A stretch of 64,000 bases of DNA. It comes from Vicinamibacterales bacterium. Lineage in GTDB: Bacteria > Acidobacteriota > Vicinamibacteria > Vicinamibacterales > JAMQPK01. Each line of letters opens with the position of its first letter. The stretch's first letter is position 1. Made by a program: the position numbers and the translations under genes. The stretch lies in contig DATEEI010000035.1 of assembly GCA_035281225.1 (NCBI GenBank), positions 9,607 through 73,606 on the forward strand, in the 5' to 3' direction. Of this stretch, positions 21,562-42,260 are shown in pieces. The notes beneath the pieces are model-generated. The model ran no database searches and was not told where the DNA came from. It saw only the letters and a program-made list of their open reading frames with translations.

Positions 21562-21987
21562 TTACGACGAGCCAGCGTCCTCGAGCATGAGCTGTCGGTT
21601 CACGGTGGCAACGAAGTCGTAGAGTTCTCCAGAGCGGACGACCTCCGCTCCAAGCGCCAGTTTTCCTTGCGCAGCACGAATCACCGTTTTCATCGTCGCG
21701 TCGAAACCGATAACGATCCACCACTCCTGACCGTCAACCTCCGTAGACCAGGCTGTGTTCACGAACTTTCCCTTATCAGTCCGGACCTCGGCGGTCATCA
21801 GACGCCAACGATCTGGATCGAAGTTCTGAAGTTGTTCGAGAGGAGCGCCACGTTCATAGCTGCGGTCTTGAACATGGCGAGCGTGGGTCTTCAACACTCG
21901 CACGTCCCGCATTTTGAAGCGAACCCGCTCAAAGAGTTCTGGTGGGCCGGTCAATGTGTGGAAACGAGCAACATGAAACTTCGGCAT
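21562..21987 (-). CDS. small hypothetical protein (possibly DUF4258/RelE-fold-like), the last gene of the large defence operon
   Basis: The ORF track gives 21562..22041. ATG at 21987 shares 1 nt with the PLD stop (TGATG). The segment THARHVQDRSYERGAPLEQLQNF loosely resembles DUF4258. Weak family call. Confidence 0.4.
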   Translation of the reverse strand: MPKFHVARFHTLTGPPELFERVRFKMRDVRVLKTHARHVQDRSYERGAPLEQLQNFDPDRWRLMTAEVRTDKGKFVNTAWSTEVDGQEWWIVIGFDATMKTVIRAAQGKLALGAEVVRSGELYDFVATVNRQLMLEDAGSS

Positions 21988-24566
21988 CAAGCTCCGACGA
22001 CTCGCTGAGAAGCGGCGTCCATGGTGACCCACTCGACGCACTTGACATGAGTCGTGAGGAATTGGCGTTCCTCGTCTTCAACCTCAGCGTCGAAGACTGT
22101 GATCTTGTCCGAGGCGCCAGAAGGGACGACTTCGAGAGCGATGCGAACACGTGGATCGAGCGCCGAGCCGAGGATGACGAGGTCACCGGGACGGGGCGCG
22201 CGACCGGACTTCCGGACCGCCTCCGGGGTCTTCTCGACATCGGCCAAAAAATCTGCCAGGCGAAGATGACTCGCGACCCAGGAGTTGCCGTCAGCATCTC
22301 TTCGCGCTGTCCGACCGACGGCCTGGCTGAGGGTATCGCGCGCTTCTAGGTCGCCAGCTAGCTGACCGGCGATCGCGGCAAACACCTGAATCGGGTACCA
22401 CGGGCTGTCCTCCTCCTCCAGGTCGATTGGGCTAGTCCGGTTGACCGCGGCCCTAACGTTGATCTCCATTTCCCACGCTAACCACGCTAGCAATCCAATC
22501 GCGAGGGATAGTTCCTGGAATGGCTCGCCATCCCCCTCCTTTAGCGATCTTGGCGCTAACGATGAACCGCCCCAAGTGAGCGCCAACCCGCCAGCTTCGA
22601 ACAGCACCCACTCATCATTTGGGTCCACGAGCGTCAGATGCTTCGAGCGCCACTCCGTCCGCTGCTCCATGGTACGAAGGGTGTGCACGACGCTGAGGAC
22701 TGCGGCAAGCTGCACGACTGCACGCCGAGCGACACCATCGCGCGCTGCATCGAGCTGTTTCACCATTCGCCTAATCAGCCGACCGACCTTACCGCGGCAC
22801 AAATCCGCCAAGACTTCGTACGGAGGGGGAGGCGGTGGAGGCTCCTCATCTCCGGCGTCGTCGTCGGTGACGGGCAGCACTTCTTCAGCTGGTGGACGCG
22901 GCGGCGCCGGCGCCAACAGGCCCTCGCCGAGCCGGCACATCAAGGCATCCAACAGAACGAGGATGTCGCCGCTGGCCAACCGTTTCTTCTTCCGACCGGA
23001 GCGTCGGCCAGCCGCGTCCACGGCGAGCGACTCTGGGCCGGGTTCATGGGTCTCTGCACGGTTGGTCTCCGTCTTTCGACGGATGGCAGGTTCGGGAGTG
23101 ACTACGTCGTCCGAGTCGAAGATTACCTTCTGTGTCAGCTTCAGGAGCGCGTCGAGCTGTGCAGGATCCTCGTCGAGTGCTCCGAGGAGTTGTCGCAATT
23201 CACGCTGCCGGTCACCGCCAACGTTCCTGGCAACTTCATCAGGTCGATGGACCAGCACCACCACCCGTTTCTTTCCGGGACCGAACCCACGCAAGGTCTG
23301 TGCGGCGTCGCGTACGGCATCCGCTGCGTCGATGGCCAATTCGTTACCCGTGCGCGTGAGTGCTTGGCCCAGGTTGCTGCCATCTGCAGCGAAGGCATCG
23401 AGCACGATTCGCGGGCCTATCGGTCGCTCGAGTGCAAAGCCGTCGTCTGAGGGGACGGCAAGCACTACCGTCCCGCGGCCGTCCGACTTCTCCTCGACGA
23501 GGTCGGCCTGCCTATCTGCGACTTTGGTCCATTCCTTCGCTCCAACACTCGGTGCAGCCACGAACGCGTCAATGCCGAGTGCCTTCGCGGCTCCTTCGCG
23601 ACGATCGACAACCACAGCTTCGGCGTTTCTGAAGTGGTCCACCGGCAAAAAAGCCGCTTGCGAGGGATTTGCACTACCGGTCACGAGGAGCTCACCTTCA
23701 GAGCCCTCGAACCAAAGAACCTTCGCGTGCAGATACGTCGTGGCGGACTCTCGGCGATTGGGCACGCGCGGGAGTCCCGCAACGTTTACGAATTCGGCAC
23801 CACGGAACTTTCGAACCGACGCAGGGTCGATCTCGACTGACTCTGGGTCGATTCCGACGACAAGCCTGCGCGGCTTCACATCATCAAGGAGCTGTTGCAG
23901 AAATCCGAGCTTCTTGTCGAAGTACGGCCCGCACACGAAGGCTGTCGATGGTCGCTTGGGAACCATGGGCCTAATTCGTGACCACAGATCCGCATCATCA
24001 CCGGTTGTTGTCAGAAGGATTCGTTCGGTCGATTCAACGGCCATCGGACCGTCAAGCCATGGAATGTTCCGTCCGACGGAAGCGAACACCTGGTCCATGT
24101 CGGTGAGCCCGGTCGGCACGAATGTCCGCAGGTAGTCCAGCGCTGCGCGAATGACCGCGGCCCCTTGGCGGGCTCCCGCTCCACTGGTTCTGAACTCATT
24201 CGTGATCTCGTCGTTCAATCCAAAGCCTGCAAGTGTCGTGTTATGGCTGCCGACGAACAACGCACCTTTCGATTTTCCGAGAGCGACGATGAGTTTCGGA
24301 TGAAACGCTCCGCGGAGATGAACCGGAACCAGCGTGTAGTCGCGGCCGGCGCGCTTAGGTCGCGTGTCGTCGCACGCGAAAGCCTCAGCACACAGAGCGG
24401 CGTCGACAAGCAAGATGTTGTTGGTGCAACCCCGGTCCAGCAGACGACGAAGTACGACCTCCTCGTAGAAAGGAAAGTAGCAGCAGTACGTGGCTATTAT
24501 CGAAGCCTGAAAGCCGGTCTCGGAAAGTGCTTCGAGCAATGAGAACGACGCTGCCTCACGAGGCAC
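21987..24566 (-). CDS. PLD-family (two HKD motifs) nuclease-like protein with a long uncharacterised C-terminal region
   Basis: HKD-1 reads FHPKLIVALGKSKGALFVGSHNTTLAG and HKD-2 reads YLHAKVLWFEGSEGELLVTGSANPSQAAF. An acidic poly-Pro linker DDDAGDEEPPPPPPPYEVL follows. The remaining ~350 aa is unrecognised. Confidence 0.8.
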   Translation of the reverse strand: MPREAASFSLLEALSETGFQASIIATYCCYFPFYEEVVLRRLLDRGCTNNILLVDAALCAEAFACDDTRPKRAGRDYTLVPVHLRGAFHPKLIVALGKSKGALFVGSHNTTLAGFGLNDEITNEFRTSGAGARQGAAVIRAALDYLRTFVPTGLTDMDQVFASVGRNIPWLDGPMAVESTERILLTTTGDDADLWSRIRPMVPKRPSTAFVCGPYFDKKLGFLQQLLDDVKPRRLVVGIDPESVEIDPASVRKFRGAEFVNVAGLPRVPNRRESATTYLHAKVLWFEGSEGELLVTGSANPSQAAFLPVDHFRNAEAVVVDRREGAAKALGIDAFVAAPSVGAKEWTKVADRQADLVEEKSDGRGTVVLAVPSDDGFALERPIGPRIVLDAFAADGSNLGQALTRTGNELAIDAADAVRDAAQTLRGFGPGKKRVVVLVHRPDEVARNVGGDRQRELRQLLGALDEDPAQLDALLKLTQKVIFDSDDVVTPEPAIRRKTETNRAETHEPGPESLAVDAAGRRSGRKKKRLASGDILVLLDALMCRLGEGLLAPAPPRPPAEEVLPVTDDDAGDEEPPPPPPPYEVLADLCRGKVGRLIRRMVKQLDAARDGVARRAVVQLAAVLSVVHTLRTMEQRTEWRSKHLTLVDPNDEWVLFEAGGLALTWGGSSLAPRSLKEGDGEPFQELSLAIGLLAWLAWEMEINVRAAVNRTSPIDLEEEDSPWYPIQVFAAIAGQLAGDLEARDTLSQAVGRTARRDADGNSWVASHLRLADFLADVEKTPEAVRKSGRAPRPGDLVILGSALDPRVRIALEVVPSGASDKITVFDAEVEDEERQFLTTHVKCVEWVTMDAASQRVVGA

Positions 24567-26196
24567 GACATGCCTCCAGCTCCTTCCGCCCGTTACTCGT
24601 CAGGATCGGCCATGCGTCAGCGTCGAGGTCTGTCAGGTCGAGGTCACGCAGAATCTGAAATGCTTTACCGAGTCGAGGGACTGTCGCGGCGGGGGGCGGT
24701 ACTTCGACGACACGAAGTTCTTGTTCCAGTGGACGGATCCTGAACGTGTCGCGGCGCTCCCCTCGAAGCTTGCGAAGAGCCACGCTCAGGTGACGCTGAA
24801 TTCCCCAATGCACAGACAACCATCGAACCCATTGCTCGACCGTCATGTCCGCCCACGTGGATTGCCACGCCTGCTTGAACGAGAGCAGGTGGACTTCCCT
24901 GGGGTCGAAGTAGTCAGGCTCGAACTCGAACTCCGCGTACGGATTTTCGTCAAGGCCTCTAGCGAGCAACGACAGCAGGATCTGGATCCCTTCCTCGACC
25001 TGTACCTCAAGCGCAGTTTCGTCAGCGTGCGTCTCGAGAATCTTCCAACCGCGCTGGATCTCGTGACCGTCGTTCTGCCACGCGCTGATGTCAGGCAAGC
25101 CCGACGCAAGGTCCGAGACGACGTCCGCGAGACGGCGTTTACGAAACCGGCCAGACGAGGGGAGGAGATTTACGCAGATATCACCTGCCGCCGCGGCGGT
25201 CGGCAGTCTCCCCGAGTGGTCGCGCTCTATCGCGCGAAGAACGGCAGCAAACAGGGCTTGCAATGCGAGAGAGAGCAGTTCGTTCTGTTCGTAAATCGCC
25301 CAACCGCCTTGAACGCGGAGAAATGATGAGGGCACATCCCACGGCTTGCCGTCGGGAAGTGCCCTACTGTATGTCGCTGCGCGGAAGACACTCTCCAAGC
25401 TGTAGCCCTCAAGCCGACTACAGCGGTCGACGAGGTCCAAGGCCAATGCGAGGGTTACGCGGCGGTTCGTTGACTCCGCCGACTGGTACGCTTCCGATCT
25501 AACGAGAAAGAGATCGAGAAGCAGCGTGCGCTCCACCTGACGGTTGCGTAAGCTGCACGGACAGAACTCAGCGAGGCCATCAAGCTCGGACCAGCGGATC
25601 TTCGGCCTCTCCAGTAGCCGGAAGAACTCATCCTCAGGCATTCCCGTCGCAAATGCCTCGGCTAGGGCGCTACCCCGCACTTTGTCATAGCCCGGGATTG
25701 CTCCGTCTTTCTCGGACGTGTAATCGAGGACCCGAAGATCGCGTAACGCACCGAAGTAGTACTGACCCAGGCCTCCAGCTGGATTCTTGAAGTACCGACT
25801 GGAACCCTCTAAATCTGCATGGTCGTCCAGTCTGATCGCGTCGGAGTCTTCTGCGATTCTAAGCAGGCTCTGTCTGCCAACCATTCCAAGACCATGGCGT
25901 CCAGCGTCACGATCGTTCAGCACTCGAGCATGACGAATTGCTATCAGGGCGAACAAACACTCCGCCCGGCGCAGAACGCGACGGAACTCTTCGATGGAGT
26001 GGTCTCGATAACGTTGTTCAAACGACCGAATCAGCCAAGGATTAAAGCTGTAATACCGCGCGCGGTCGGTAACGTTAGTGATGCCCGGAACCAGCTGGGA
26101 GTACAAGGCGATGCACGGCGCCTGCACGCCGAGGTGATCAAGTCCCCTAATGGGCTTCGCGGGCTCTACCCAGCCGAGGTCGGTCGGTCGACTCAT
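24556..26196 (-). CDS. hypothetical protein (546 aa), operon component of unknown function
   Basis: Clean ATG start with balanced composition. The N-terminal motif GLDHLGVQAPCIALYSQLVPGITNVTDRARYYSFNPW is reminiscent of uncharacterised families linked to DNA-modification systems, but I cannot name one with confidence. The gene overlaps the PLD gene by 11 nt. Confidence 0.55.
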   Translation of the reverse strand: MSRPTDLGWVEPAKPIRGLDHLGVQAPCIALYSQLVPGITNVTDRARYYSFNPWLIRSFEQRYRDHSIEEFRRVLRRAECLFALIAIRHARVLNDRDAGRHGLGMVGRQSLLRIAEDSDAIRLDDHADLEGSSRYFKNPAGGLGQYYFGALRDLRVLDYTSEKDGAIPGYDKVRGSALAEAFATGMPEDEFFRLLERPKIRWSELDGLAEFCPCSLRNRQVERTLLLDLFLVRSEAYQSAESTNRRVTLALALDLVDRCSRLEGYSLESVFRAATYSRALPDGKPWDVPSSFLRVQGGWAIYEQNELLSLALQALFAAVLRAIERDHSGRLPTAAAAGDICVNLLPSSGRFRKRRLADVVSDLASGLPDISAWQNDGHEIQRGWKILETHADETALEVQVEEGIQILLSLLARGLDENPYAEFEFEPDYFDPREVHLLSFKQAWQSTWADMTVEQWVRWLSVHWGIQRHLSVALRKLRGERRDTFRIRPLEQELRVVEVPPPAATVPRLGKAFQILRDLDLTDLDADAWPILTSNGRKELEACRAS

Positions 26197-26214
26197 CGAA
26201 ATCGCACTCGAAAC

Positions 26215-29200
26215 TCAATCCTTCTCAAATCCTTGGCTCGTGAACTTCAACGTCCGCCCGTTCTCGGTCACGGTTCTGACAACCTGATCGGGAGCACCGT
26301 CGGGCATCTGCGCTTCGATCTCGAGCGTCACTTTGACGTTCGCACCTACCAGACCCGTGAGATGGGAGATAACCTCATCGGCCACCCGGCTGGCGTCACG
26401 TCCGACGCGCGTTGAGTCGAGAGCGACAGTCCCATGGAACCGCTTGGGTTTGGCAGCGGTCGGAGTGACGACTGCTGCGCCGCCCATGCCACCGGCCACA
26501 ACAGATGGGACAGCTCCTCCCGTTCCAGTTGAAGATGATCCGCCGATGGCAACAGCGGCGGCCGCAGCGTCCGCGTCCTGCTGTGTCTGTGCCCGCTCAG
26601 GCCGGACCAGTAGTCCGCTCAGATTCGACGCCGAGACGTTCACCTGCTGGCCACATCTGAGCCCACGATATCGCCCCGCTGCTTCGTCGAAGCTGTCGGC
26701 ATACGCGAAGGAGTCCTGCATCCACAGGAGTAGCCCAAGGCCCTCGCGGATGGCGTCCAACAAGACGGCGGTGTCGCGGAGGCGCGGCAAGTACGCGTAC
26801 CGTCCGAAGTCGTCGACCAGTTGCTTCAACTCGACGTGATCTCCGCGCCACAGCGGTACGCGATCGAGTTCCATTCTCAGACGGGTCGATGCGAAGCCGG
26901 TGACAAGCAGTTCGTCGCTACGCAGCTTCTTGCTGGCCCGTACGGCGAGGGCGTCCTGGCCGGAGAGTCGTATCGCTTGCCATTCGACCGCAGCTTGGGG
27001 CGAGCTTTGGACTGGAACCAACAGCCACTGATACGCCTCAGGAATCCGTGCCGTGACAGCGCCGTCGGCGCTCGCGCGCTGCGTCTCGGCCTGCTTCACC
27101 TGGTGCGGCGACAAGTCGAGCGTGTCTTTCTCGGTGAGGATCGACTCCCAGGCGAGATACCGTCGGACTGCTTCATCGAGATCCTGAAGTCGGGTCTTGT
27201 CGACGGCGAGGAACACAAGGGCGTTCCGATACAAGCGCGGAGAGTTGCCTCGTGACTCGAGAATCGTTTTGGCAGCTGCTTCGCCAGCGTTGCCCGGATC
27301 CTTGCTGTAAGGGTGGTCGATCCCAAGAACGACAAGCCGGGCGTCCGGATCGTCTGGCACGTCTTGGCCCGACTGCGGCAAGGGATGGATCCGACTGAAG
27401 TCCCCAGCCTTGCGGAGATCGACCCTCAAGCGTTTGTCGAGCTCCTGAGCAACGGCGTCCGGGTCACGTTTCAATTGCTCCGCGCGGTCTTCAGCAATCT
27501 TCGTGACTGTGGGCTGCGTGGAGTACCAGTAACGCGCGGCGTCCTGATACAAGTAGGTGGCTGCCGCACTTAAGCGTCTCAAGGCGTCCCCGAAGATGGC
27601 CGGCGACTCGCCGGGCATCACACATCCGAGCTTTATCTGGCGGTCCTCGATGCCGCGGTTCGCGGCTCCCGCCGTCGGGGCTGAGCCCAAATAGATCGTA
27701 CGGGCGACGCGGCGAGAGGCCGCGAACTTGCCTAGGTTCGGGACTTCTCCGTCGAGACGTAGCGGAAGCGCGCTTGGGCCGTCGACATCCTTCTCAATCA
27801 CGGGAACCCAGTTATCGGACAAGTAACGCGTCAGCTCAAACTGCACCCGCGGGTCGTCGATTGGAACATTGGCGGGCAGAATCAGCGGATTGCGGTCGCC
27901 CTTCTCCCACAAGCTGTGAATAACGGCCGCCATCAGCCGCAACACGCCGCGCGTTCGCTGAAATTTCACAAGTGTGGACCAGTCGTTGTACAGGCGATCG
28001 AAGACCTCCGGATGAATCGGATAGGCCGCCTTAATGCGCTTCTCATATTCCGGGTCGTGGCATTCAGGGGGGAACTCTTGGTGCTGCGTGCGATAAAGAT
28101 CGTAGAAAGCACGTGCGACAGTGTCACGGGCGACAAACTGCGGTTGTTCAACGATGGGCTCGAAAAGGCGTCGTCTAACGATTTCGAAACCCTCCTCGGC
28201 GCTGGCAGGACGCCACGATGCCTCTACACGACCGACGGCATTTCGAAGTCGATCGAGGGCGGCGCGACCGCGCTCTCCACCGACTTCGACGTCGCTTACA
28301 GGCGCATGGGGTGAACCAGTCGTATCCGAAGCGGGCAAGCTGATTACGAGCAGGCAGTTGCCCGCGAGTTTCGCCGACTCCGTAAGCGCCTGAGCAAACG
28401 TAAAGTGCGTTTCAAAACTGCCAGCCGGGAGGTCTCCCTGGTCGTGCAGCTGGCGGGCGTATGCCACCCATTCATCAACGAGTACGAGGCACGGTCCGTA
28501 CTCGTTGAACAACTCGCGCAGCACGTCTCCCGGACTCGTCGCCTTCTCGTCGTCGGCCTTCACGCGCGCGAATGCCCTTTTGCCCCCCAGCTGCCAAGCC
28601 AGTTCACCCCACAATGTCCGGACGACGGTGCCGTCCGACTTCGTGCTCGGATTTCCAGGGGAGATCTTGTTGCCCACTAAAACGACACGCTTTACTGTCG
28701 GCAACTTGCTAACGCCAGCTTCAGCCAGGATCGCATCGATGCCGAGCAGTTCGCTGGGCGCGGCACCGCCAAACAGGTGATACAGCGCAAGCATCGAGTG
28801 CGTCTTGCCGCCACCAAAGTTGGTCTGAAGTTGGACGACCGGATCGCCCTGCTGGCCAGAGAGACGCTGGACAGCGCCTACGAGCAACTGCTTCAAACTG
28901 TGGGTCAGGTAAGTGCGACGGAAGAACTCGACCGGCTTCCTGTATTCGTCGCTCCCTTCGCCGATATGGACCTGCCACAGATCAGCGGCGAACTCGGCCT
29001 GCTGGTACCTGCCGGTCGCAACGTCCTTGTGAGGTGTAACGACTTCTCGCCATGGCTTCAGCGTCCCGGTCGCTTGACTTTCGATCGCGGTGCCGGCGGT
29101 ACGGCGTTTCTCCGTTCGCATCTGTTCGTCGAAGCGAAGGCGGAGCAGCTCCATCTTCATCTTGTCGAGCTCGTCTGCCTGTGGCGCGGACACCGCGAGC

Positions 29201-29562: not shown

Positions 29563-29565
29563 TAG

Positions 29566-32460
<2,895 letters not shown>

Positions 32461-32521: not shown

Positions 32522-33517
32522 CTAGGATTCCTTGTCCTTCCTGACCTTCATTCGCTCGCGACCCATCTGCTCGATCAAACCGGCCGCCTTCAAAACGCAG
32601 TCGAGGCTGATAGCCGGCGTCTCTGGGTTGCCTTTGACGTATCCGGACAGGTACTCGTCGGACGGATTGTCGATGCCGAGCCTGCTGCAGACGAGAAACG
32701 CCACTGATTCCGCTTCGAATTCCCGAACAGCCACAGGGAGCCCCCGACGGTCCGGCCACCAATGCTCGTTCGGCGTTCCCAGATGTCCACAGTACAAATG
32801 GGCGAGCTCGTGAACCAGCGTGACGTACTTGGCCTCTGGAGAGTGTTTGGCGTTCAAGAGGAGTTCGTACCTCACGGCGAAATCACGATACACGGGCTCC
32901 GGACGCGACTTTATCAAGAACTTGACCGACGCCCCGGGTTTCGCGATGCCGATCTGCCCGGCGCTCTGCGAGCCGGCATCTCGCTCCACGACACGAACGC
33001 CGTCCCGTTTCGCATTCTCTACGGACCGTCCGAGTTCATTGCCCACTCGTCCACCTCGGACCTCGAAAGGCTTTTCGACATCTCTCGGCAGAGGCTTTGC
33101 GTCGGGAAGCGGCTCGGTGTCGCTGACATCGAATGCGAACATCACGGGTCCCATCGGTTGGAGGAGGACGACGGGGCGCGCTCCCGGCTTGATTCGACGT
33201 CCGTAGTCGCGCGTCCATCGATACGGTGGCGCGACGAACGTGGCACCAGGCATCTGAATGTGCGCAAGCATCGCGTTGAACGGCGAGTAGAGCCGAAACC
33301 GGGCGATGAAGCGCATCAAACCATTGAACGATTCGCTACTCGTGTACTGGCGAGCGAACTGAAACAGTTCGTCGAGCGATCGCTGCGCGCTGTTTCGATC
33401 CCACTCCGCCGCCCCCGCCTCAATGGAGTCCGCCTCCTCGAACAGCGACTCCTGAGCTACGTGATTACCAATCGTCGAGTCTGGCCCGCGGCCGGGTACC
33501 TTGGGGCTAGGGGTCAT
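32522..33517 (-). CDS. putative zinc metallopeptidase-like protein (HExxH)
   Basis: The motif [17 protein letters not shown] is HExxH-type. The N-terminal half, [39 protein letters not shown], vaguely recalls ArdC-like N-domains. Its ATG overlaps the upstream stop (ATGA). Confidence 0.5.
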
Positions 33518-36500
33518 GCTTGAACACCGACGACGAGTCGATAGGCGGCCGGATAGATCTTTAGCTGTCCCTGGGCAACCATCGCCCGCAACGATGCCCC
33601 TGGTACCTCGATCGGATCACCGAAAGGGGAAGCCAACACCAATGAGTACCGGTCAGGAAACTTGTCGATGAGCCCCCAGAGGTCTGCACCCAACTGGAGT
33701 GGCTCCTGGTCCAAGCAGTGCTCCTTTCCCCAGTACGCACGCACTAGCTCGCCACCCGCAGTGCGTCTCTCCCACGGGAACGGCGCACCACTGATCCGGG
33801 CGATCCAAGCACCGTCAGGGTGGTAGAAGCGATCATCGCCGTCTTTCAGGAACCCCAGCGACCGAGCGAATCGGTCAATGATTGAAGGCTTCTGGGCTGG
33901 ATGATGCCGGTGACGAGCCGGCGCTTCTTGTGATGTTGCGACACTGTCAGCCTCAGCATCCACGCTGCCACTTGCCGCTGATTCCTCGGCCGCGACCTCC
34001 AACGTCGATGGCTCGGTCTCGGTGCTATCCGTCACCCGCGGGCTTATGTTGGCAGCCGGCTCCGTGGCTGCGGCTTGGGAACCGTCCGAGGTGACGACCG
34101 TTCTAGGAACCAGATTGAAGTTCTCTTCCATGTAGTCGGTTACGAAGTCCGGTGGACGGTCGAAGCACAACTTGATCGCATCCGCTATGTCCTGGCGACG
34201 AAACGTGCGTCCTAACTCCTGGGATACAACACGAGCGAGCCGCGCGGCCGGACGGCGCACAACATGGAGCGTCCGATCGGCCCACACTGCGTCGGCTCTC
34301 CGAGGTGTCCCGGCCGGCGTGCCGCCAATGTACGGAACCAACTCCAGTTCCGGTCCCTCCACCCACACAGTCTGCTCGAGCCGCTCCGCCAACGTTGCGA
34401 TCCACGCAACCTCGGCGCCGTCATCCAGCTGTACCCGACGCAGTTCCACTCCCAATTGCGTAAGCCAAGTCTTCCGCTCTGGCGTACCAACCACCAGCAA
34501 AGCCATGTTGAGCCGTTCTTCGATGCTTTCGGCGAGCCGCGGAATCGCGGCGAACGGCGGGCCGTCGGCGATCTCAGTCGAGACGCGCTGCAGGTCCGCC
34601 GTGGCTTGCTTGACCCACTCATGAAGGTGGCTCCAAGGCACGAGCGACTGCATCGTAAGCGCGTATGAAAGGTCGGCCACTGGGGCCCATTGTGCAGCCA
34701 GGTTAAGCCAATGCCCTGTCTCGCTCCAGACGCGCCCCGGATGTCGCGCGAGCAATGCCCGCACTCGTCGAAGGTCGTCCTGAGATAACGATTGCTCTGA
34801 CGTCAGTTCGGACAACCACCTCAACGCGAGGTCGGCACTCGGGCGATCAGCCACACCGACCTTATGCCAGAGAGCAAGATCCTGCACCGAAGCGCGGACG
34901 ATCGCAGCACCTGGGACGTCCTCCTCATCAGCGTTCAAGAACACGCCACCCGCTGTTGCCCATGCGCCGCCGTCCGTGAAGATCAGTTTCTCGGTGCCGA
35001 ATACGTTCCGAATCTTCGCGGCTTCGGTCGTCGATGCGGTGTCAAGCATCTGGTCCAGCCGCCGATACCACTTCTCGACTTCTGCGACCGGTGGCTTGTC
35101 GACAGCCGCCAACGCGCGAAGACAGTTGATGAGACGGTCAGGCGTGGTGGGCGTGTCGCGAACGCCCAGTAAGGTAAGGAGCGGGCGCGCTGCTTCCACG
35201 TCGAGAACCGCATGAACAAAGAACTCGACGTCGAGAAAAGGCTCTGTCTGTGGCGTTCGGCGAAGGAGATCGCCGGGCTTGCGGGGCGTTCCCCGTGTGT
35301 CGCGCAGACACGGCAACTCTCTGAACCTCAGAATCCACGACGGAATGATCGGGTCATAGGTCGCGGGCTTGGTGTTCCCTGTTGTGGCGGTCTGAAGCGC
35401 GCGCGCCGTCCTTGCCTTCGTCGTATAGGTATCCGGCTGCGAGAGAATCCGCTCGACGAGGTGGCCCCACAGCGCCGAGTCCTGATGCGCGAGCGTCGCC
35501 CAGTGTTTCCACAACAACTCGTCGAAGTCCCAGTCATCGAGGCTGAAAGACGACGTGACGTACGGTGGTGAAACCGTACCAGCGAACGCGCGACGCAGAA
35601 GCTCGTCATCAAGCTGTCGACGGCTCCAAAAGTTCTGGCTCTTTGGCCGAAGTGGCGGCAATGTTGAGAGCGCGGCCCGACCTGAAGTGATCCACTTCGT
35701 CCATTCATCCGAGGTGCACGAGGCGAATTTCGCGTAGTCCTGGTGCAGGCAATGACTGGCGCACCAGGCCTCAGGAAGAATCGCTTCCAATGTGCCGTCG
35801 ACGTCGAACAGCACATCTTGGTCGATCCCTCGGAGCTTCAGATCCCGAGTCGCAAACCGAAAGCTTTTATTCGCGGCGGCTCCAAGCTTGGCAGCTATCT
35901 GTGCGAACTGAACGCAGCCCGCAAGCGGTATGCTCTCGCTCGCAAAGAAGTCGGCGGCGACGCGATCGAGAACGTAGCTGGCGTCGCTGGAGTCTACGAG
36001 ACCAAGCGACGAGAGGACCGCATATGCAGCTTCGACGTCAGTGCGGTTTGATCCTTGATCCTCCGCCAGCCGACGCTGTTCTGCGAGAAAACGCGTCCAG
36101 TTCTGGTTTAGGACAAGAAGGTGCGCCGCAAGAAACTCCCAATCGGCCTCCGATTGCAGAAGCCGCTTCTCGCCAAGTCGCACGACTTCAGTGGCGCTGT
36201 ACAAGACATCCTGGCCCTGAACCGGAGCAATCCGAATGTGCTGTTTCGTAGCGTAGTACTGGTAGTGCGTGAGCTCCGGCGCCAAGTACGCCCACAGATT
36301 AAGCAGGTGTCGCCACGATTCAGGCTTGGGTACGTGTGTTGTCCGAAGGACTTCCAGCAGCTTGGCCTTTGAGATGGCCTCGATGACGTTCCAGCGACTG
36401 AGCTTCTGCTGATCGGCTGCCGCGATCTGCCGCGAAAGGGCGGGACGGGCCGCAGCGTCCAAGATCGCCGCGGCTTGGGCCTCGGGCCACACATCCAGCA

Positions 36501-37677
36501 CGGCCGCGGGAATGAGAACGGCGCCGCCAGCCGGCTGGAGGTCGCCGGATTCAGTCAGCAGGAACGCGGTTCCGGTAATGGCAGCGTCGAATGCCTCCTC
36601 AACGGTTGCTCCACACGACCCCTCCAGTGACGTGTCTTCGCGGTCGACGTCCGGAAAGACTGAGTACGCCTCTGCGCGGGCGGCGACGGAGCCCGTCGAA
36701 GGCTTCAGCCATTCCAACATCACTGCCGCCGCCAAGCGACCTACACGTTCGAGCAACCATTGATTCGTCGGCGATGTCTCGGGATCCTTGATCTTGAGAC
36801 GCGCCGGATCTTGAATGAAAGGCGCATTGCAGGCGAACGGCAGCGGCGTTTCCACGCCCGTTGGCAGGACAACATACAGCTGTCCCTTGACACCAACCAC
36901 GATCTCGACCTTGCAGGGAGGGAACTCGGTCTCGTGGTCGACGCTGAGCAGGCGTTCCTGACGGATCTCGTTGAGCGCTTCAGCGGGGAATGCCTCTGCC
37001 TCTGACGTGGCGACGAGGTACGACTCGTCGGGATCGTCGTGAAGAGCCATCCATTCGCTATCGCGAACCGGTCCGGGACCGAGACTGCCCCAGTGGACCT
37101 CGTCTTCCCCGATTCGCATTCGACGAATGTGCTTGAAGAACAGCAGCGACAGTGGGCTCTTGAGCCAATCATGCAAGTTCTTCTCGACTTCACGACGCAC
37201 GTGATCGCTCGTGAGGGCGACGCGTATCGTTGTCTGCTGCCCGGCCGCCAGCTCGACGGCGAGCCAGCGCGGTTCAGTGAATCTGGTTCGGTCGAAGGCG
37301 ACCGACAGAGTCGGTGTGTGCAGTTCAACGACATCACCGAGACTGAAGGTGCTCTTGAAGCCAATGCCGCGAAAACCGATCGTGTGGAGTGCTCGCTTGT
37401 TTGAGTACCCGAAGCGGCACAGCGACGCGAAATGTTCTTCTGTGAAATCCTCCCCGTTGTGCGTGAACACGAAGTACCCGCCGTCGATGCGGACACCGGT
37501 CTCGGTCGCGCCGGCGTCGTCGGCGTTCTGCAGCAGCTCGGACAGAACGTGTCGCGGGCTTTGGACCTGCTTGAACAGCTGATGCCAGGGAGCCGCGAGC
37601 TCGGGATCGGATTCCAGTTGGTCCCATCGGCTACGCGACCGCCTTCGGATTTCGTCGAAGTAGGCCGGGCAGTTCAT
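33514..37677 (-). CDS. giant GHKL/sacsin-like ATPase domain protein (1387 aa)
   Basis: The N-terminus reads PRHVLSELLQNADDAGATETGVRIDGGYFVFTHNGEDFTEEHFASLCRFGYSNK ... GFRGIGFKSTF, a sacsin/HATPase_c_3-type Bergerat fold. The rest is unrecognised. Its ATG shares 1 nt with the helicase stop (TAATG). Confidence 0.7.
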   Translation of the reverse strand: MNCPAYFDEIRRRSRSRWDQLESDPELAAPWHQLFKQVQSPRHVLSELLQNADDAGATETGVRIDGGYFVFTHNGEDFTEEHFASLCRFGYSNKRALHTIGFRGIGFKSTFSLGDVVELHTPTLSVAFDRTRFTEPRWLAVELAAGQQTTIRVALTSDHVRREVEKNLHDWLKSPLSLLFFKHIRRMRIGEDEVHWGSLGPGPVRDSEWMALHDDPDESYLVATSEAEAFPAEALNEIRQERLLSVDHETEFPPCKVEIVVGVKGQLYVVLPTGVETPLPFACNAPFIQDPARLKIKDPETSPTNQWLLERVGRLAAAVMLEWLKPSTGSVAARAEAYSVFPDVDREDTSLEGSCGATVEEAFDAAITGTAFLLTESGDLQPAGGAVLIPAAVLDVWPEAQAAAILDAAARPALSRQIAAADQQKLSRWNVIEAISKAKLLEVLRTTHVPKPESWRHLLNLWAYLAPELTHYQYYATKQHIRIAPVQGQDVLYSATEVVRLGEKRLLQSEADWEFLAAHLLVLNQNWTRFLAEQRRLAEDQGSNRTDVEAAYAVLSSLGLVDSSDASYVLDRVAADFFASESIPLAGCVQFAQIAAKLGAAANKSFRFATRDLKLRGIDQDVLFDVDGTLEAILPEAWCASHCLHQDYAKFASCTSDEWTKWITSGRAALSTLPPLRPKSQNFWSRRQLDDELLRRAFAGTVSPPYVTSSFSLDDWDFDELLWKHWATLAHQDSALWGHLVERILSQPDTYTTKARTARALQTATTGNTKPATYDPIIPSWILRFRELPCLRDTRGTPRKPGDLLRRTPQTEPFLDVEFFVHAVLDVEAARPLLTLLGVRDTPTTPDRLINCLRALAAVDKPPVAEVEKWYRRLDQMLDTASTTEAAKIRNVFGTEKLIFTDGGAWATAGGVFLNADEEDVPGAAIVRASVQDLALWHKVGVADRPSADLALRWLSELTSEQSLSQDDLRRVRALLARHPGRVWSETGHWLNLAAQWAPVADLSYALTMQSLVPWSHLHEWVKQATADLQRVSTEIADGPPFAAIPRLAESIEERLNMALLVVGTPERKTWLTQLGVELRRVQLDDGAEVAWIATLAERLEQTVWVEGPELELVPYIGGTPAGTPRRADAVWADRTLHVVRRPAARLARVVSQELGRTFRRQDIADAIKLCFDRPPDFVTDYMEENFNLVPRTVVTSDGSQAAATEPAANISPRVTDSTETEPSTLEVAAEESAASGSVDAEADSVATSQEAPARHRHHPAQKPSIIDRFARSLGFLKDGDDRFYHPDGAWIARISGAPFPWERRTAGGELVRAYWGKEHCLDQEPLQLGADLWGLIDKFPDRYSLVLASPFGDPIEVPGASLRAMVAQGQLKIYPAAYRLVVGVQA

Positions 37678-40600
37678 TAGCTCGGTGCCTCCGCCCGGAC
37701 CAGCAACTCGGCGAAGTCGTAGTTGACGCTTGTGACGCCGAAGTCGGGTTCTCGTTGAAAGGGCCGGCGAACGTAGTGAACCGTGTGCGAGTGTTCGTCG
37801 TGGAACTCGACGATCCCGAGGATGAAGTCATCGGGCTTGTTCAAAGAGTAGAGGATCTCGTTGCGAGTGACTGTGATCGTGGAGGCACCCGCGATCCGGC
37901 CCTTCACCTCTATGAACCGAAGTCGTCCGGTACCGGGGATTGCGCTCTCGATGTCGTACCCGAGCTTGTCCGCTTCCTTGTCGACTGGGTCGAACCCCAA
38001 CCGTCGTTCGACGTCCATGATCGCCGCCCGCGCCCGCGCTGCAGACGCCAAGGTGTCCGGTGCCACGGAAACCGTGGGTCGGCCTGCAATCGCATTCAGA
38101 AGCCCGAGCGGAACGACCAGGAGGCCGCCAAGAACCACAGGCGGAAGTGGTGAAAGCTGCCGCTCAAGCCGCAATTCTTCCAGCCGCTTTTCAAGCCTTC
38201 CCTGCAGCGAGTCCGCGCGCTTTCGAGCTTCCGCTGAATTGAGCTTCGCGTTCGGTTTGCCGGCGCGCTCTTGCAGACGGAGTTCCTCGGCTCGGTGGTC
38301 CCAGTAGTTGATTTCCTTCGTCAACCGATCCTTGACGGCGGCTTCTGTCTTCTCAATCCTCGAAACCGTTCTCGCGCGAACCTCGCCGATGTGTTCAGGC
38401 ACAACTGTCGCGATGGCGTGCCCCTGTGCTTTCGCTTCCAACTCGCGTGTGATCCAGGCGCACTCGGGCCGCGCGAGGATCGTCGCAACGTCTGGCTCGC
38501 TCGCTTCGAGGGGGCGGTAGTCGAGGTACGGGGCGTATTGGAGGTGCTTCGCGTTGCCCGAAGCATCGAGTTCCACATAGAGCATCCTCTTGGACACGAT
38601 CCGTCGGTCGCCGGCACGAGTGGGAATCGCGTCCTGGATCGCGTGCTCAAGATAGAACACGACGCGAGGTGAGAGGCCTGCGTCTCGCTCATCGACCAGC
38701 ACAGCTCCACGGCGAAGCAAGTCACGGTGACGCTCCAACGTGAGATCGATTGTGGAGTCGAGCAACGGGTGGCCTGGAAACACGTACGCTGCGAGCGGCT
38801 GCCCCTGAGGCGCGACAAGCGATTTCTCGAATGCGATCCGCTCGTAGCGCGGCAGGACCGGCTCGCCAACTCCGATAAGTCGGTCGCGATTCCGGACCGG
38901 CGCGGGCACGTGTGTAATCTCGTACCGCCGTGTTTCCCGCTGCTTGGCCGTGCCTCCAAGGCGCTGGAATGCCTCAAGGAAGAATGACTCGATATAGTGC
39001 GGTTGGAGTCGACGAGCATCTGCTCGCTCCATGTCTTCACGGATGCGATGGACTCGACTAGCGTCCATCGAGTCATGCGCGAGCGCTCGCTCTTCCAGCA
39101 AGTCCTGGATCTGGGTCCGGTCGAAGGCATTGGCGACTACTTGAGAAAGTCGGCCACGGACCTCGGGCTGCTCTCCGTAGCGGATGGCTTCGATCAAGAG
39201 CTCTCGCAGAGGGCGGCCCTCGAACTGGAGCTTACCCAAGACGTCGAACACTTGGCCGCCAAGTGCCTTGCGCGCTTCGTCCAGCTTCTCGAGGAGGGTT
39301 CGATAAACCTCTCCCTCCCTGGTGCCTTCGGCAATCAGGTTCCAGAGATGGCACACTTCCGTCTGGCCGATTCGGTGGATACGACCAAATCGCTGTTCTA
39401 TGCGGTTCGGATTCCAGGGCAGGTCGTAGTTCACCATCAGGTGGGCGCGCTGCAGGTTGATGCCTTCGCCCGCTGCATCCGTCGCCACGAGAACTTGAAC
39501 AACCGGATCGTGCTTGAACGCCTCTTGGGCCTTCGTTCGGTCCTCTCGACCCATCCCGCCGTGGATGACGACGACGGCATCCTTGCGGCCAAGAAGCGTC
39601 GTGATTCGCTGTTCGAGATAGTTGAGCGTGTCGCGTTGCTCTGTGAAGATGACAAGTTTCTGGCTTGGCGAGGCAGCGACGCCAACCGCTGACGCGCTCG
39701 TCGGCGTTGTCGGGTCTTCGTTTGCTGGCGATGGCGTCACCGCGAAGATCTCACTGAGAAGACTCGCGAGCTCGCGCCACTTTCGATCCTCGCCGCCGCG
39801 CCGAACGACGAGCGCCAGATTTTCCAGCCGCTTCAGTGTTTCGATTTCCGCCTGAAGTTCGGCGATCGTGCGCGCGGCCGTCGCCTGATCGACGACTTCT
39901 TCGACAACTTGCTCTTGTTCTGCATCGGGGGAGTCTTCGATGTCTTCGATGTCCTCGTCCGTCATCTCCGGGAGCGTTGCTGCGGCGTCCAGGTTTGCAA
40001 GCGCACCGCGCTGGAGTTGTTCCTCCTCCCGCAGACGCTTTTCAAGCCGTTCTTTGCGGCGCCGGAGCGACTGATAGATCGCCTCCGGCGAAGAAGCCAG
40101 CCGCCGCTGGAGAATTGTGAGCGCGAAACCCACGGTGCCGGCTCGCTTGTCGTTCTGCAGCGCCTCTGCCCGATTGAATTCCTGGCGAACGTAATCAGTG
40201 ACCGCGGTGTAGAGTTGAGACTCCGCAGTCGAGAGCTGGTACGGAACCGTGTACGCGATGCGTTCAGGGAACAGCGGCGTCGCGTCAAACTTCAGCAGGC
40301 TCTCTTTGACCATGCGACGCATCAAATCGGAGACGTCCGCGGTGTGCACGCCGTCCCGGAAGCGACCCTCGAAGCGATCGCCATCGAGCAGAGCCATGAA
40401 CAGCTGAAAATCTTCTTCCTTCCCGTTGTGGGGCGTGGCTGTCATCAAGAGGAAGTGCCGCGTCACCGTCGACAGAAGCTGGCCAAGCTTGTATCGCTTC
40501 GTGTACTTGATTTCGCCTCCGAAGAACGTCGCCGACATCTTGTGCGCCTCATCGCACACAACGAGATCCCATCGGCAATCAGGAGCCGCCAGCTTCGCCT

Positions 40601-41246
40601 GCACATCCTCATTGCGGGAGAGTTTGTCGAGCCGAGCGATAGCGAGGTTGGTTTCGAAAAACCAGTTGCCGGTTCGTGCAGCTTCGAGCTTGTCGTTGGT
40701 CAGGATCTCGAACGGCAAGTTGAAGCGGCGGTACAGCTCGTCTTGCCATTGCTCCGCGAGCATGCCGGGGCACACAACCAGGCACCGTTGAAGATCGCCG
40801 CGTGCGATCAGTTCCTTGATCAGGAGGCCAGCCATGATGGTCTTGCCGGCTCCTGGGTCGTCGGCCAGCAAGAACCTCAGAGGTTGTCGCGGCAGCATCG
40901 AGCCGTAGACTGCCGTGATCTGGTGGGGCAACGGCTCGACCTGCGAGGTATGCACCGCCAGAAGCGGATCGAAGAGGTGTGCGAGGCGGATGCGGTGAGC
41001 CTCGGACACGAGTCGAAACAGGCCACCCTCGCCGTCAAAACTCCATGGTCGGCCCTGTTCCACCACCTCGATCCTGGGCTCGTCGTGGCGGTACAAGAGC
41101 TCGTTGGCCACCTTGCCAGCAGCGGTCTTGTAGGTCAGTTCCAGCGCCTCCGAACCGAACCACTGAGTACTGACGACAGTAACCAAGGCGTCCGGCAAAA
41201 TGCCCTTTACGGCCGCATTTGTTCGAAGATCTTCGAGTTTGCTCAT
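37677..41246 (-). CDS. SNF2/DEAD-like superfamily 2 helicase with a C-terminal DUF3883 (restriction-endonuclease-like) domain
   Basis: The ORF track start is 41282, and ATG at 41246 gives MSKLEDL. Motif I reads LLADDPGAGKTIMAGLLI and motif II reads LVVCDEAHKM. Motif VI-like reads NPNRIEQRFGRIHRIGQ. The C-terminus reads GYDIESAIPGTGRLRFIEVKGRIAGASTITVTRNEILYSLNKPDDFILGIVEF (DUF3883-like). Confidence 0.85.
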   Translation of the reverse strand: MSKLEDLRTNAAVKGILPDALVTVVSTQWFGSEALELTYKTAAGKVANELLYRHDEPRIEVVEQGRPWSFDGEGGLFRLVSEAHRIRLAHLFDPLLAVHTSQVEPLPHQITAVYGSMLPRQPLRFLLADDPGAGKTIMAGLLIKELIARGDLQRCLVVCPGMLAEQWQDELYRRFNLPFEILTNDKLEAARTGNWFFETNLAIARLDKLSRNEDVQAKLAAPDCRWDLVVCDEAHKMSATFFGGEIKYTKRYKLGQLLSTVTRHFLLMTATPHNGKEEDFQLFMALLDGDRFEGRFRDGVHTADVSDLMRRMVKESLLKFDATPLFPERIAYTVPYQLSTAESQLYTAVTDYVRQEFNRAEALQNDKRAGTVGFALTILQRRLASSPEAIYQSLRRRKERLEKRLREEEQLQRGALANLDAAATLPEMTDEDIEDIEDSPDAEQEQVVEEVVDQATAARTIAELQAEIETLKRLENLALVVRRGGEDRKWRELASLLSEIFAVTPSPANEDPTTPTSASAVGVAASPSQKLVIFTEQRDTLNYLEQRITTLLGRKDAVVVIHGGMGREDRTKAQEAFKHDPVVQVLVATDAAGEGINLQRAHLMVNYDLPWNPNRIEQRFGRIHRIGQTEVCHLWNLIAEGTREGEVYRTLLEKLDEARKALGGQVFDVLGKLQFEGRPLRELLIEAIRYGEQPEVRGRLSQVVANAFDRTQIQDLLEERALAHDSMDASRVHRIREDMERADARRLQPHYIESFFLEAFQRLGGTAKQRETRRYEITHVPAPVRNRDRLIGVGEPVLPRYERIAFEKSLVAPQGQPLAAYVFPGHPLLDSTIDLTLERHRDLLRRGAVLVDERDAGLSPRVVFYLEHAIQDAIPTRAGDRRIVSKRMLYVELDASGNAKHLQYAPYLDYRPLEASEPDVATILARPECAWITRELEAKAQGHAIATVVPEHIGEVRARTVSRIEKTEAAVKDRLTKEINYWDHRAEELRLQERAGKPNAKLNSAEARKRADSLQGRLEKRLEELRLERQLSPLPPVVLGGLLVVPLGLLNAIAGRPTVSVAPDTLASAARARAAIMDVERRLGFDPVDKEADKLGYDIESAIPGTGRLRFIEVKGRIAGASTITVTRNEILYSLNKPDDFILGIVEFHDEHSHTVHYVRRPFQREPDFGVTSVNYDFAELLVRAEAPS

Positions 41247-41885
41247 CTTGGGCTCAAACCCACAAAGTCGGACCTCGCGCATCCGCGAAGCGCGACTGTA
41301 ACGTTAACCGAAACGAAGAGATCCCGAGAGTCGGAACTGACGTCGCCCAGTGCTACGGCCGTCGCCGTTGGGGTACCGCCAGATTGAACACAACAGAATA
41401 TCGAAGAGGGTGACAGGCTAGGTCACACGCGTACGAGCGCCACGATGGGCGGCGCATCAGGAGCTGAAGTCACTGAGCGGGGTCTTCCGACGCCCGGCGT
41501 GCGCCTGCCTTTCGGCGTGTCGAGCCACGATAACGCGCCCGGCGCGGCAAAATGTACGAGTAATTTTTTCCGGCGTGTCAGCCTTCACGACACCGTCTTG
41601 GCGCCGACATTTTGATTCTTGCCTGTTTTGTGAAGCGCGCGCTAACAGCCGAGCGGTACTCTTCTTGCCTTTTGACGGCGCACGCGGGACCGCTCAGTCA
41701 GGGATTTCCCGTTGCAATTCCCTCCCCGGTAACCCGCCACAAATCAATCTCTGTCCGCCAATTGAATTGGAACCGCTAATCGTCTGTCCGCGCGGGCCGA
41801 CAATACGCACGCGTGTATACATCACAATACGTAAGCTTGTATACGTTATGAACATTCGTGAACCGCGGTCCGAGATGGAGTCCGT

Positions 41886-42209: not shown

Positions 42210-42260
42210 ACAGATGCTTGTATGGTAACAGAGGTTAGACTTTCTAGCACGGAGGTTCTA

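Follow-up and report, generated by a model that had tools for sequence, protein, structure and literature searches.

Whether a tightly packed run of genes encodes one defence machine or several is the question raised by a gene cluster in a 64,000-nucleotide stretch of DNA from a Vicinamibacterales bacterium (GenBank assembly GCA_035281225.1, contig DATEEI010000035.1, positions 9,607 to 73,606; this whole stretch is referred to as the window). The cluster occupies window positions 21562-41282, about 19.7 kb, and is tiled by eight long, co-directional open reading frames (ORFs) of the minus strand, as found in the ORF listing: hmaA, a gene for a sacsin-type GHKL ATPase, a gene for an HExxH protein, hmaB, hmaC, and genes for a 546-aa protein, a phospholipase D (PLD)-superfamily protein and a 141-aa protein (Table 1). 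The original prediction, made from the sequence, took the eight genes as one system and proposed that its methyltransferase, ATPase and helicase triad underlies the methylation-associated defence system MADS. The present analysis arrives at a different answer: the cluster is probably a co-directional stack of at least three separable modules for defence, lying in a conjugative element's cargo region, and not one eight-component machine. This reading is built on gene content, family membership, intact catalytic motifs and linkage statistics, all of which are observed directly.

The first module is the known Hma core joined by the GHKL ATPase, the second is an ArdC-like HExxH protein, and the third is the pair of 546-aa and PLD proteins to which the 141-aa gene has been added. 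The GHKL-bearing Hma subtype and the PLD pair appear to be undescribed and are the parts worth follow-up. More generally, the locus illustrates that a tightly packed, apparently translationally coupled gene run can still be a stack of separable modules.

The Hma core

The proteins of the window were searched with the Pfam, PADLOC and NCBIfam profile libraries. HmaA is the predicted restriction effector; it matches the PADLOC HmaA model at 1700 bits over profile positions 1-1172 of 1176, and Pfam identifies SNF2-rel_dom, Helicase_C and NOV_C (DUF3883) domains. Its motifs GAGKT144 and DEAH244 and the C-terminal YD...IEVK (D...ExK) are intact, and orthologues that are 72-81% identical are found in many phyla. 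HmaB is predicted to be a self-marking N6-adenine methyltransferase; it matches PADLOC HmaB at 1566 bits and Pfam DUF1156 at 112 bits, with FAGGG (motif I) and DPPY567 intact. HmaC matches PADLOC HmaC at 1172 bits together with Pfam HEPN_Swt1 (131 bits) and DUF499 (98 bits), and retains R96NRWAH101 (Rx4H), the Walker A motif GGGKT250 and the Walker B motif LVLVDE359; this AAA+/STAND-like ATPase is predicted to act as a sensor or scaffold and, through its HEPN domain, as a back-up RNase. Because the PADLOC HmaA, HmaB and HmaC models are matched end to end and the Pfam domains agree, the triad is, on profile evidence, the known Hma system (Type-1 BREX-related). In gene content Hma is complete, with an HmaA with SNF2 and NOV_C, a DUF1156 HmaB and a HEPN-DUF499 HmaC, and the window shares the same-strand succession hmaA...hmaB...hmaC with two sets of 80 related loci. 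The earlier calls of DUF1156, HEPN-DUF499 and SNF2/DUF3883 are thus all recovered by the profile searches; those of the GHKL, HExxH and PLD domains are borne out by Pfam, NCBIfam and motifs, and the view of the triad as a modification-type defence system agrees with PADLOC Hma.

The definition of Hma (helicase, methylase, ATPase) goes back to Payne et al. 2021, a paper that counts 1,638 instances from 26 phyla in RefSeq, often together with Septu (PMC8565338); the neighbourhood of HEPN-DUF499, SNF2-DUF3883 and methylase genes was first noted in 2013 by Anantharaman et al. (PMC3710099). In 2026 Hma was renamed a Type-1 DUF499-centred BREX-related (BR) system, with the HEPN fusion present in 1370 taxa (Rakesh & Krishnan, PMC12839542). 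Widespread as Hma is, its mechanism is known only for the nickase activity of HmaA; in one study, Halomonas HmaA alone protects E. coli against T4 and the NOV_C nickase is needed for this (PMC11232893).

Gene order, insertion slots and hmaB alleles

A scan anchored on HmaC, with one genome per species, gave 80 loci, and all window proteins were compared with these by tblastn. The loci span many bacterial phyla (among them Acidobacteriota, Nitrospira, Planctomycetota, Chloroflexota, Bacillota, Bacteroidota and Pseudomonadota) and one metagenome-assembled genome labelled Methanobacterium. Conservation of HmaC is unusually high, at 69-81% amino acid identity over 1115 residues across the 80 genomes; such identity in genomes this varied implies recent, very broad horizontal spread.

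The order HmaA-(slot)-HmaB-(slot)-HmaC is kept across the HmaC-anchored loci. Where hmaA and hmaB are both present (46 loci), they are directly adjacent in 6, enclose the GHKL gene in 8 and hold other inserts of 0.5-4.8 kb in 32; the junction of hmaB with hmaC has inserts in 27 of 71 loci. The inserted ORFs were clustered and Pfam was run on 10 representatives, which include Schlafen/AlbA_2 with HATPase_c_4, AAA_15/21 ABC ATPases, DUF4276, DUF488 with DuOB, a YhcG PD-(D/E)xK nuclease and STAS with HATPase. These counts agree with a published insertion 'hotspot' in Hma, with insertions in 66.5% (PMC11232893), and the inserts agree with the auxiliary or backup effectors described for BREX-related systems (PMC12839542).

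The identity of HmaB to the window copy is bimodal, at about 45% or about 70%, regardless of the identity of HmaA and HmaC; in one locus (L085) HmaA is 93% and HmaC 95% identical, yet HmaB is only 45%. Divergence of HmaB peaks at residues ~300-550, between motif I and DPPY, which is the pattern expected of target-recognition region shuffling; these residues are presumably the target-recognition region. This suggests that hmaB is an exchangeable allele through which recombination may switch methylation specificity. A similar spread was seen among near-identical elements (L085, L084 and L168), in which HmaA is 89-99% and HmaC 95-98% identical and HmaB just 45-72%.

A sacsin-type GHKL ATPase tied to Hma

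The GHKL protein matches the NCBIfam sacsin N-terminal ATP-binding domain at 73 bits (cut-off 50) and Pfam SACS/HATPase_c; its Bergerat motifs, E47xxxN51AxD54 and G101xxG104xG106, are invariant in 24 homologues. Residues 39-523 correspond to positions 73-556 of the PADLOC profile for TmtA, the protein of the Tiamat system, at 197 bits, and residues ~780-966 correspond to profile positions 828-1020 of 1486 at 60 bits. Nothing in the C-terminal 868 residues matches the NOV_C portion of the TmtA profiles, several of which match the NOV_C of HmaA instead with their last ~100 positions (E 1e-11 to 1e-8).

A metagenome scan anchored on the GHKL protein retained the best 80 of 215 relatives, at 47-93% identity. 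HmaA, including its NOV_C, lies immediately upstream of the GHKL gene in all 75 loci that have upstream flank, and HmaB lies downstream in 68 of the 80, the remaining 12 contigs ending within 0-3.7 kb. The HmaC-anchored set contains the GHKL protein in 10 of its 80 loci (41-59% identity), and it sits between HmaA and HmaB in all 8 that include HmaA. The association spans two divergent Hma clades (HmaA/HmaC ~77/73% and ~53/43% identical), which implies long co-inheritance, and such tight linkage to Hma is matched by no other slot cassette examined.

Since the ATPase of Tiamat and a Tiamat-type nuclease sit here on adjacent genes whose start and stop overlap, a Rosetta-stone argument can be made that the two proteins work together; the GHKL ATPase is most likely the fourth component of an Hma subtype, working with or gating the HmaA NOV_C nuclease. 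This GHKL-bearing subtype appears to be undescribed: no GHKL, sacsin or MORC-type component is named in the accessible main text and supplements of the paper on BREX-related systems (PMC12839542), and a GHKL component of Hma is not mentioned in the accessible text of either PMC8565338 or PMC11232893. Tiamat and the window share the sacsin-type GHKL N-terminus and middle region, and the C-terminal NOV_C of TmtA is homologous to the C-terminus of HmaA. The two differ in that Tiamat combines ATPase and nuclease in one chain encoded by a stand-alone gene, whereas in the window the nuclease is carried by an SNF2 helicase and the ATPase is separate and adjacent, within a system that contains a methyltransferase.

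The alternative that survives best is that the GHKL gene has no functional tie to Hma and is a Tiamat variant, a single-gene defence in its own right, that entered the insertion hotspot between HmaA and HmaB in the way that Septu or PARIS do. The slot does hold many unrelated cassettes (as PMC11232893 also reports), TmtA models are matched, and Tiamat is counted in the literature among the PD-(D/E)XK single-gene defence systems. Set against this, the clade was never found outside Hma (75/75), the NOV_C region carried by TmtA profiles was not detected in the GHKL protein, and the gene always directly follows a NOV_C-bearing gene, with start and stop overlapping in the window; its presence in Hma clades as far apart as ~73% and ~43% in HmaC also implies a long shared history. 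Independence of the GHKL gene is accordingly considered unlikely, if the least unlikely of the alternatives.

A bolder, composite proposal is offered tentatively: that the GHKL ATPase is the dedicated fourth subunit of an undescribed Hma/BREX-related subtype, in effect a 'Tiamat split in trans' that gates the NOV_C on the SNF2 helicase, and that the 546-aa and PLD proteins make up a new nuclease defence of two genes that stands alone. If the first part were true, it would link two defence systems now catalogued as unrelated; the GHKL-partner subtype would give a testable handle on the control of NOV_C and may also inform how Tiamat works. The plant protein NO VEIN also combines GHKL and NOV_C.

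Single-chain fusions of SACS-GHKL with NOV_C, belonging to the TmtA family, are found on plasmids, in Planococcus (684 aa) and in Sulfuricurvum (1006 aa, beside Qat). Plasmid proteins of this sacsin-GHKL and NOV_C type (L169:5869-7923 and L170:5995-9015) are annotated merely as 'DUF3883 domain-containing protein'; the Sulfuricurvum gene is flanked by a NERD-domain gene and the Qat system. The GHKL copy on a Burkholderia plasmid is labelled just 'ATPase' in RefSeq.

Another family of GHKL ATPases comes from restriction-modification (R-M) operons; according to Iyer et al. 2008, MORC and paraMORC ATPases occur there with SF2 helicases (including SWI2/SNF2), nucleases and methylases and have been proposed to act in DNA looping or complex remodelling, and paraMORC3 has a RE-fold nuclease of its own (PMC2292703). 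They differ from the window protein, which is of the sacsin/NOV type, and the match of its profile to the MORC3 GHKL domain in the PDB is weak (E 0.006); a DUF499 or DUF1156 context is not mentioned in the accessible text of that paper. Sequence searches of the PDB with the HExxH, GHKL, PLD, 141-aa and 546-aa proteins gave nothing useful except this MORC3 match.

The 546-aa/PLD pair and the 141-aa protein

The 546-aa protein has no Pfam or NCBIfam match and a marginal one to PADLOC ZacA (20 bits); its family comprises 614 homologous clusters of ~545 aa, and a Pfam domain was found in 0 of the best 120. The PLD protein matches Pfam PLDc_2 and carries the HxK...GSxN motif twice, at H89 and at H280; both of these HxK elements are invariant in 45 homologues. 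The original prediction had read these as two HKD motifs: the paired HxK motifs stand, but Ala and Glu are found where the canonical Asp would be, and the motifs are better called HKD-like. In an AlphaFold (AF2) model with a pLDDT of 73.6 the PLD protein has a two-lobe HxK nuclease-like domain at ~1-340, a small beta domain, a disordered linker, a helical domain at 583-780 and a C-terminal beta domain. Foldseek matches the fold to TDP1 (E 6e-6), PSS, PPK, SauUSI, Zucchini and NucT, with the C-terminal domains unmatched. PADLOC ZacB is matched by 45 of the 45 family members sampled (best 2e-17; 59 bits for the window protein) and PDC-M27B by 41. The family holds at least 295 homologous clusters of ~855 aa, and those that bear a source name are all labelled 'hypothetical protein'; a search of IMG/VR yielded no member.

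The two genes are adjacent, with an 8-11-nt overlap, in all seven other contexts, and six of the seven have no Hma nearby; the upstream partner of the PLD gene (852-861 aa) has 542-546 aa in six and is frameshifted into three pieces in the seventh (L167). In one context (L081), which is related to the window at ~93%, HmaC lies upstream and the order is HmaC-546-PLD-141. The others are a defence island with CBASS and a kinase-helicase (L082), a Sorangium locus adjoining a type I R-M system (L083), a mobile element (L167), an integrase region (L172), a site adjoining an MmeI-like enzyme (L173) and a site between toxin-antitoxin genes and the his operon (L174). No helicase gene adjoins the pair in L174, and none on the same strand does so in L172 or L173. 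In the 80 HmaC-anchored loci tblastn found none of the 546-aa, PLD and 141-aa proteins. The conserved pairing points to a candidate nuclease defence that is complete in two genes and has a distant relationship to Azaca ZacB; the PLD protein is its predicted nuclease. The pair appears to be undescribed; it represents a large unannotated family in defence-island contexts and a candidate new system.

Azaca (ZacABC; bioRxiv 10.1101/2025.07.10.664194) is the nearest named system. It resembles the pair in that the ZacB PLD-nuclease model is matched and the gene just upstream, like that of ZacA, codes for an uncharacterised protein; it differs in having the SF2 helicase ZacC, which is required for cleavage in vitro, and a DUF6361 ZacA, whereas the pair is without either. 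The PLD protein also exceeds the ZacB profile by ~270 aa, with additional domains at its C-terminus, and the match covers ~160 profile positions; the ZacB-like region is the one feature of Azaca found in the pair. Identification of the 546-aa protein as ZacA was rejected, there being no DUF6361 in the protein or in three relatives and no Pfam match even at E 10.

The 141-aa gene follows the PLD gene in the window, in L081 (96% identity) and in L167 (80%), and is absent from that place in L082, L083, L172, L173 and L174; judged by this distribution it is a lineage-specific add-on to the PLD pair. The protein has no match in Pfam, PADLOC, NCBIfam or the PDB. A DUF4258-like toxin, suggested by the motif HARHVQDRSYERG, was considered and dropped, Pfam at E 10 being empty for three homologues.

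An ArdC-like HExxH protein

The HExxH protein matches Pfam Peptidase_M78 at 26 bits and has the sequence HELAH at residue 236. An AlphaFold (AF2) model built from 42 homologues (pLDDT 82) shows low confidence for residues ~1-45, followed by an N-terminal alpha/beta domain and a C-terminal HExxH (M78/IrrE-like) metalloprotease domain. The only significant PDB matches in Foldseek are to ArdC of R388, 6i89 (E 8.5e-6) and 6sna (E 2e-5); the alignment covers ~305 columns at probability 1.0, but the TM-score is low, 0.31-0.39, probably owing to domain orientation. Against viral structures the model gives just generic matches to IrrE/SprT-like protease domains. The protein may thus be called ArdC-like at the level of fold. 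In the model it resembles R388 ArdC in an N-terminal domain and a C-terminal HExxH domain, aligned over the whole length, and both are encoded on a conjugative element; it differs in its low TM-score, in the lack of a Pfam ArdcN match and in the position of its gene inside a defence operon. ArdC itself binds ssDNA and has a metalloprotease domain; it enables a plasmid in conjugation to escape the type I system of the recipient (PMC7213743).

The family of the HExxH protein is large, with more than 2200 homologues, many of them 60-80% identical, and the three other contexts examined are mobile-element-like (transposases, DnaB/AAA_25, orphan methylases) and hold no Hma. Just 4 of the 80 GHKL-anchored loci have the HExxH gene between the GHKL gene and hmaB, two in the same arrangement as the window (L102, L147) and two with extra genes (L129, L130); it is also found there in L168, which has the order HmaA-GHKL-M78-HmaB-HmaC. 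The 80 HmaC-anchored loci gave one match, of 27%, elsewhere in its locus. Being sporadic in Hma and abundant elsewhere, the HExxH protein is regarded as accessory to Hma; as far as the modelled fold and gene distribution can guide, it most likely helps the element to evade restriction in the recipient or has a regulatory role, and does not belong to the core of Hma. The window lies beside type IV secretion system (T4SS) genes, which makes it a natural home for an ArdC-like gene, and the presence of such a gene inside a defence operon on a conjugative element would place defence and counter-defence cargo side by side.

One machine or several modules

The biochemical steps proposed for the three modules draw on family knowledge and on the single study of HmaA. 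In the first module, HmaB would methylate adenine (m6A) at a motif set by its variable central region and so mark self DNA; HmaC, a HEPN-DUF499 AAA+ ATPase with DNA-binding domains, would sense or scan unmodified DNA and assemble the complex. The SNF2 motor of HmaA is expected to translocate on DNA and its C-terminal NOV_C to nick or cut, while the GHKL ATPase most likely cooperates with the HmaA NOV_C and gates it as a dimerising, ATP-driven clamp or switch, and the HEPN domain may be an RNase held in reserve. The second module would be an ArdC-like, ssDNA-binding metalloprotease, typical cargo of a mobile element, that acts independently. In the third, the 546-aa and PLD-fold proteins would form an independent nuclease defence, with the 141-aa gene added on.

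The view of the original prediction, in which all eight proteins are obligatory subunits of one integrated methylation-based defence, is improbable on the comparative data. It can draw on the geometry of the cluster, in which eight co-directional genes overlap or are separated by short gaps without internal promoter or terminator signals, and on close relatives that keep each half, the 546-aa, PLD and 141-aa genes behind HmaC in L081 and the HmaA to HmaC run with both inserts in L168. The last three genes are absent from every HmaC-anchored locus, though, and the pair is found without Hma in L082, L083, L167, L172, L173 and L174; the M78 gene is in just 4 of 80 GHKL-anchored Hma loci and abundant elsewhere; HmaA and HmaB are directly adjacent in 6 Hma loci; and HmaA alone defends in E. 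coli, according to PMC11232893. Only the GHKL gene is tightly tied to Hma. The two largest gaps in the cluster, one of 61 nt in front of hmaB and one of 18 nt in front of the 546-aa gene, coincide with the module boundaries inferred from the comparative data, and inside the modules genes overlap or sit 3 nt apart.

Several observations weigh against a division into three modules with the roles given above. The eight genes all run in one direction with very little space between them, and the scans picked up no promoter or terminator inside the cluster; the genes may therefore be one transcript and could cooperate in this particular element. The self-marking role of HmaB is based on a methylation never demonstrated so far, and PMC11232893 reports that overexpression of HmaB in Halomonas left T4 sensitivity unchanged. 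The ArdC likeness comes with TM-scores of 0.31-0.39 and an unmatched ArdcN profile; the linkage of the GHKL gene was counted in the best 80 of 215 relatives, at 47% identity or more, and more distant relatives (TmtA) stand alone. Finally, a low-coverage metagenome contig (L167:10001-15916) carries the ArdC-like gene (78%) with, straight after it, the frameshifted 546-aa gene, the PLD gene (76%) and the 141-aa gene (80%), next to AAA_25, terminase-like and transposase genes and with no Hma genes; these four genes may travel, share history or function as a unit, which the three-module split does not explain.

Other named systems

A variant of DISARM, canonical BREX or a standard type I/III R-M system is very improbable. 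HmaA does give strong partial matches to DrmD and BrxHI/II in PADLOC, and kinship is recognised between DUF499 and BrxC and between HmaB and the type-3 BREX methylase (PMC12839542). The match to NCBIfam DrmD reaches 353 bits against a cut-off of 610, no PglZ, BrxA/B/L, DrmA/B/C/E, HsdS or Res/Mod architecture was found among the eight proteins, and the best models are Hma-specific and matched end to end. The NCBIfam equivalogs for DISARM, BREX and type-2 BR systems (DrmD, DUF1156_antiphage, DUF499_antiphage and phospholipD_antiphage) were tried and rejected, all being far below their cut-offs. The original prediction had named a BREX variant as the contrary outcome; this holds to the extent that the triad is now classed as BREX-related, and canonical BREX, DISARM or type I/III R-M is not supported.

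That the locus is MADS or a MADS-like variant can practically be dismissed: the likeness goes no further than eight genes, association with methylation, ATPase and nuclease domains and a place in a defence island, whereas the MADS proteins include a kinase, DUF4276 and a methylase with its type-I-like specificity subunit, the eight window proteins have no Pfam match to Pkinase, Methylase_S or DUF4276, and the triad is HmaABC at 1172-1700 bits. The MADS operon, mad1-8 of P. aeruginosa SMC4386, is recognised as no known system by PADLOC or DefenseFinder and methylates a bipartite target, TCAGNNNNTCC (Maestri et al., bioRxiv 10.1101/2023.03.30.534895); PADLOC had defined Hma in 2021 (PMC8565338) and did not recognise the MADS operon. 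Mad4 is a DUF4276 protein (PMC12065111), and Mad6-8 are mandatory in the published MADS model. Equivalence with MADS was rejected on this comparison of published gene content with the domains of the eight proteins, and the Hma/BREX-related triad should not be conflated with MADS in annotation. In the window, Hma is recognised by its three core proteins, their gene order and variable hmaA/hmaB and hmaB/hmaC slots that take other defence genes; the window differs from Hma as described in having a dedicated sacsin-type GHKL ATPase after hmaA and an ArdC-like gene in the same slot.

Gene layout

The eight genes and their junctions were reproduced exactly as first described, from the ORF listing and by reading base by base. 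The GHKL start lies over the hmaA stop in TAATG (1-nt overlap), and the GHKL and HExxH genes overlap by 4 nt (ATGA). The 61-nt gap before hmaB is that obtained with the hmaB ATG at 32460; hmaB and hmaC are 3 nt apart, an 18-nt gap separates hmaC from the 546-aa gene, the 546-aa and PLD genes overlap by 11 nt, and the 141-aa start lies over the PLD stop in TGATG (1-nt overlap). Gene geometry makes co-transcription and translational coupling of the eight genes plausible; scans for promoters and terminators gave nothing above shuffle expectation, including inside the cluster. The GC content at third codon positions is 0.66-0.72 in all eight genes, like the rest of the window.

The true start of HmaA is probably the second ATG, at 41246, because the alignments to homologues and to the PADLOC profile set in at residue 12-13 and the homologue in L168 is 1190 aa long. 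A plus-strand ORF of 177 aa (21475-22008) lies antisense to the 141-aa gene; the 141-aa frame is 96% identical in L081 and 80% in L167, against 73% and 48% for the antisense frame, and because relatives keep it far better the 141-aa gene is taken as the real one and the antisense ORF rejected as non-coding.

Table 1. Genes of the cluster and of its surroundings, with positions in the window.
Feature	Position	Strand	Remarks
HmaA, SNF2 helicase with C-terminal NOV_C/DUF3883 PD-(D/E)xK nuclease	37677-41282	-	1201 aa as listed
Sacsin-type GHKL ATPase	33514-37677	-	1387 aa
ArdC-like HExxH protein	32522-33517	-	331 aa
HmaB, DUF1156 N6-adenine DNA methyltransferase (predicted)	29566-32460/32466	-	964/966 aa
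HmaC, Swt1-type HEPN and DUF499 ATPase	26215-29562	-	1115 aa
546-aa protein	24556-26196	-	546 aa, no recognisable domain
PLD-superfamily protein	21987-24566	-	859 aa, GTG start
141-aa protein	21562-21987	-	141 aa from ATG; 159 aa from furthest GTG
WYL/BrxR-CapW-like regulator	20455-21465	+	Pfam WYL; convergent with the cluster, divergent from the Pycsar operon
PycC cyclase	18778-20415	-	713 bits
E1-E2 (Cap2-like) gene	17000-18781	-	666 bits
JAB/JAMM (Cap3-like) gene	16558 to ~17007	-	55% identical to L081 Prok-JAB gene; GEWHSHP motif
cNMP-binding and TIR effector	15596-16582	-	PycTIR 401 bits
Second, short PycC	14204-15076		
T4 coupling protein	53623-55638		

Neighbourhood of the cluster

The cluster sits between a Pycsar operon and T4SS genes. 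Conjugation genes, including TrbC/VirB2, VirB3, VirB4-like and TrbI, occupy 42222-58032 and 60871-63000, immediately upstream of hmaA; judged by this gene content, the defence island is cargo of a conjugative element, possibly an integrative and conjugative element. No tRNA that could mark an integration site was found in the window. A megablast of 20400-42300 against plasmids returned one 73% DUF1156 fragment, from a Burkholderia plasmid; for the T4SS region (42200-60000) nothing was returned. At the right edge of the window, a gene for a class A penicillin-binding protein may be chromosomal flank.

The orthologue of the WYL regulator in L081 has WHD_BrxR, WYL and BrxR_CTD domains, and 26 of the 80 GHKL-anchored loci have a homologue, 45-52% identical to the window protein, directly upstream of HmaA. 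A WYL gene in this position, on the strand of hmaA, is seen in a divergent clade of Hma with GHKL (HmaA ~53%, HmaC ~43%), in L101, L103-L104, L106-L108, L110-L111, L113-L115, L119, L123-L125, L127, L131, L134, L139, L145, L150 and others; in the window the WYL gene is at the far end of the cluster. The stretch from 14204 to 21465 holds a Pycsar-type minus-strand operon with accessories in the style of type II CBASS, and further left in the window lie genes for a DUF4238 protein (11149-12312) and a PcfJ-like protein (6044-7351).

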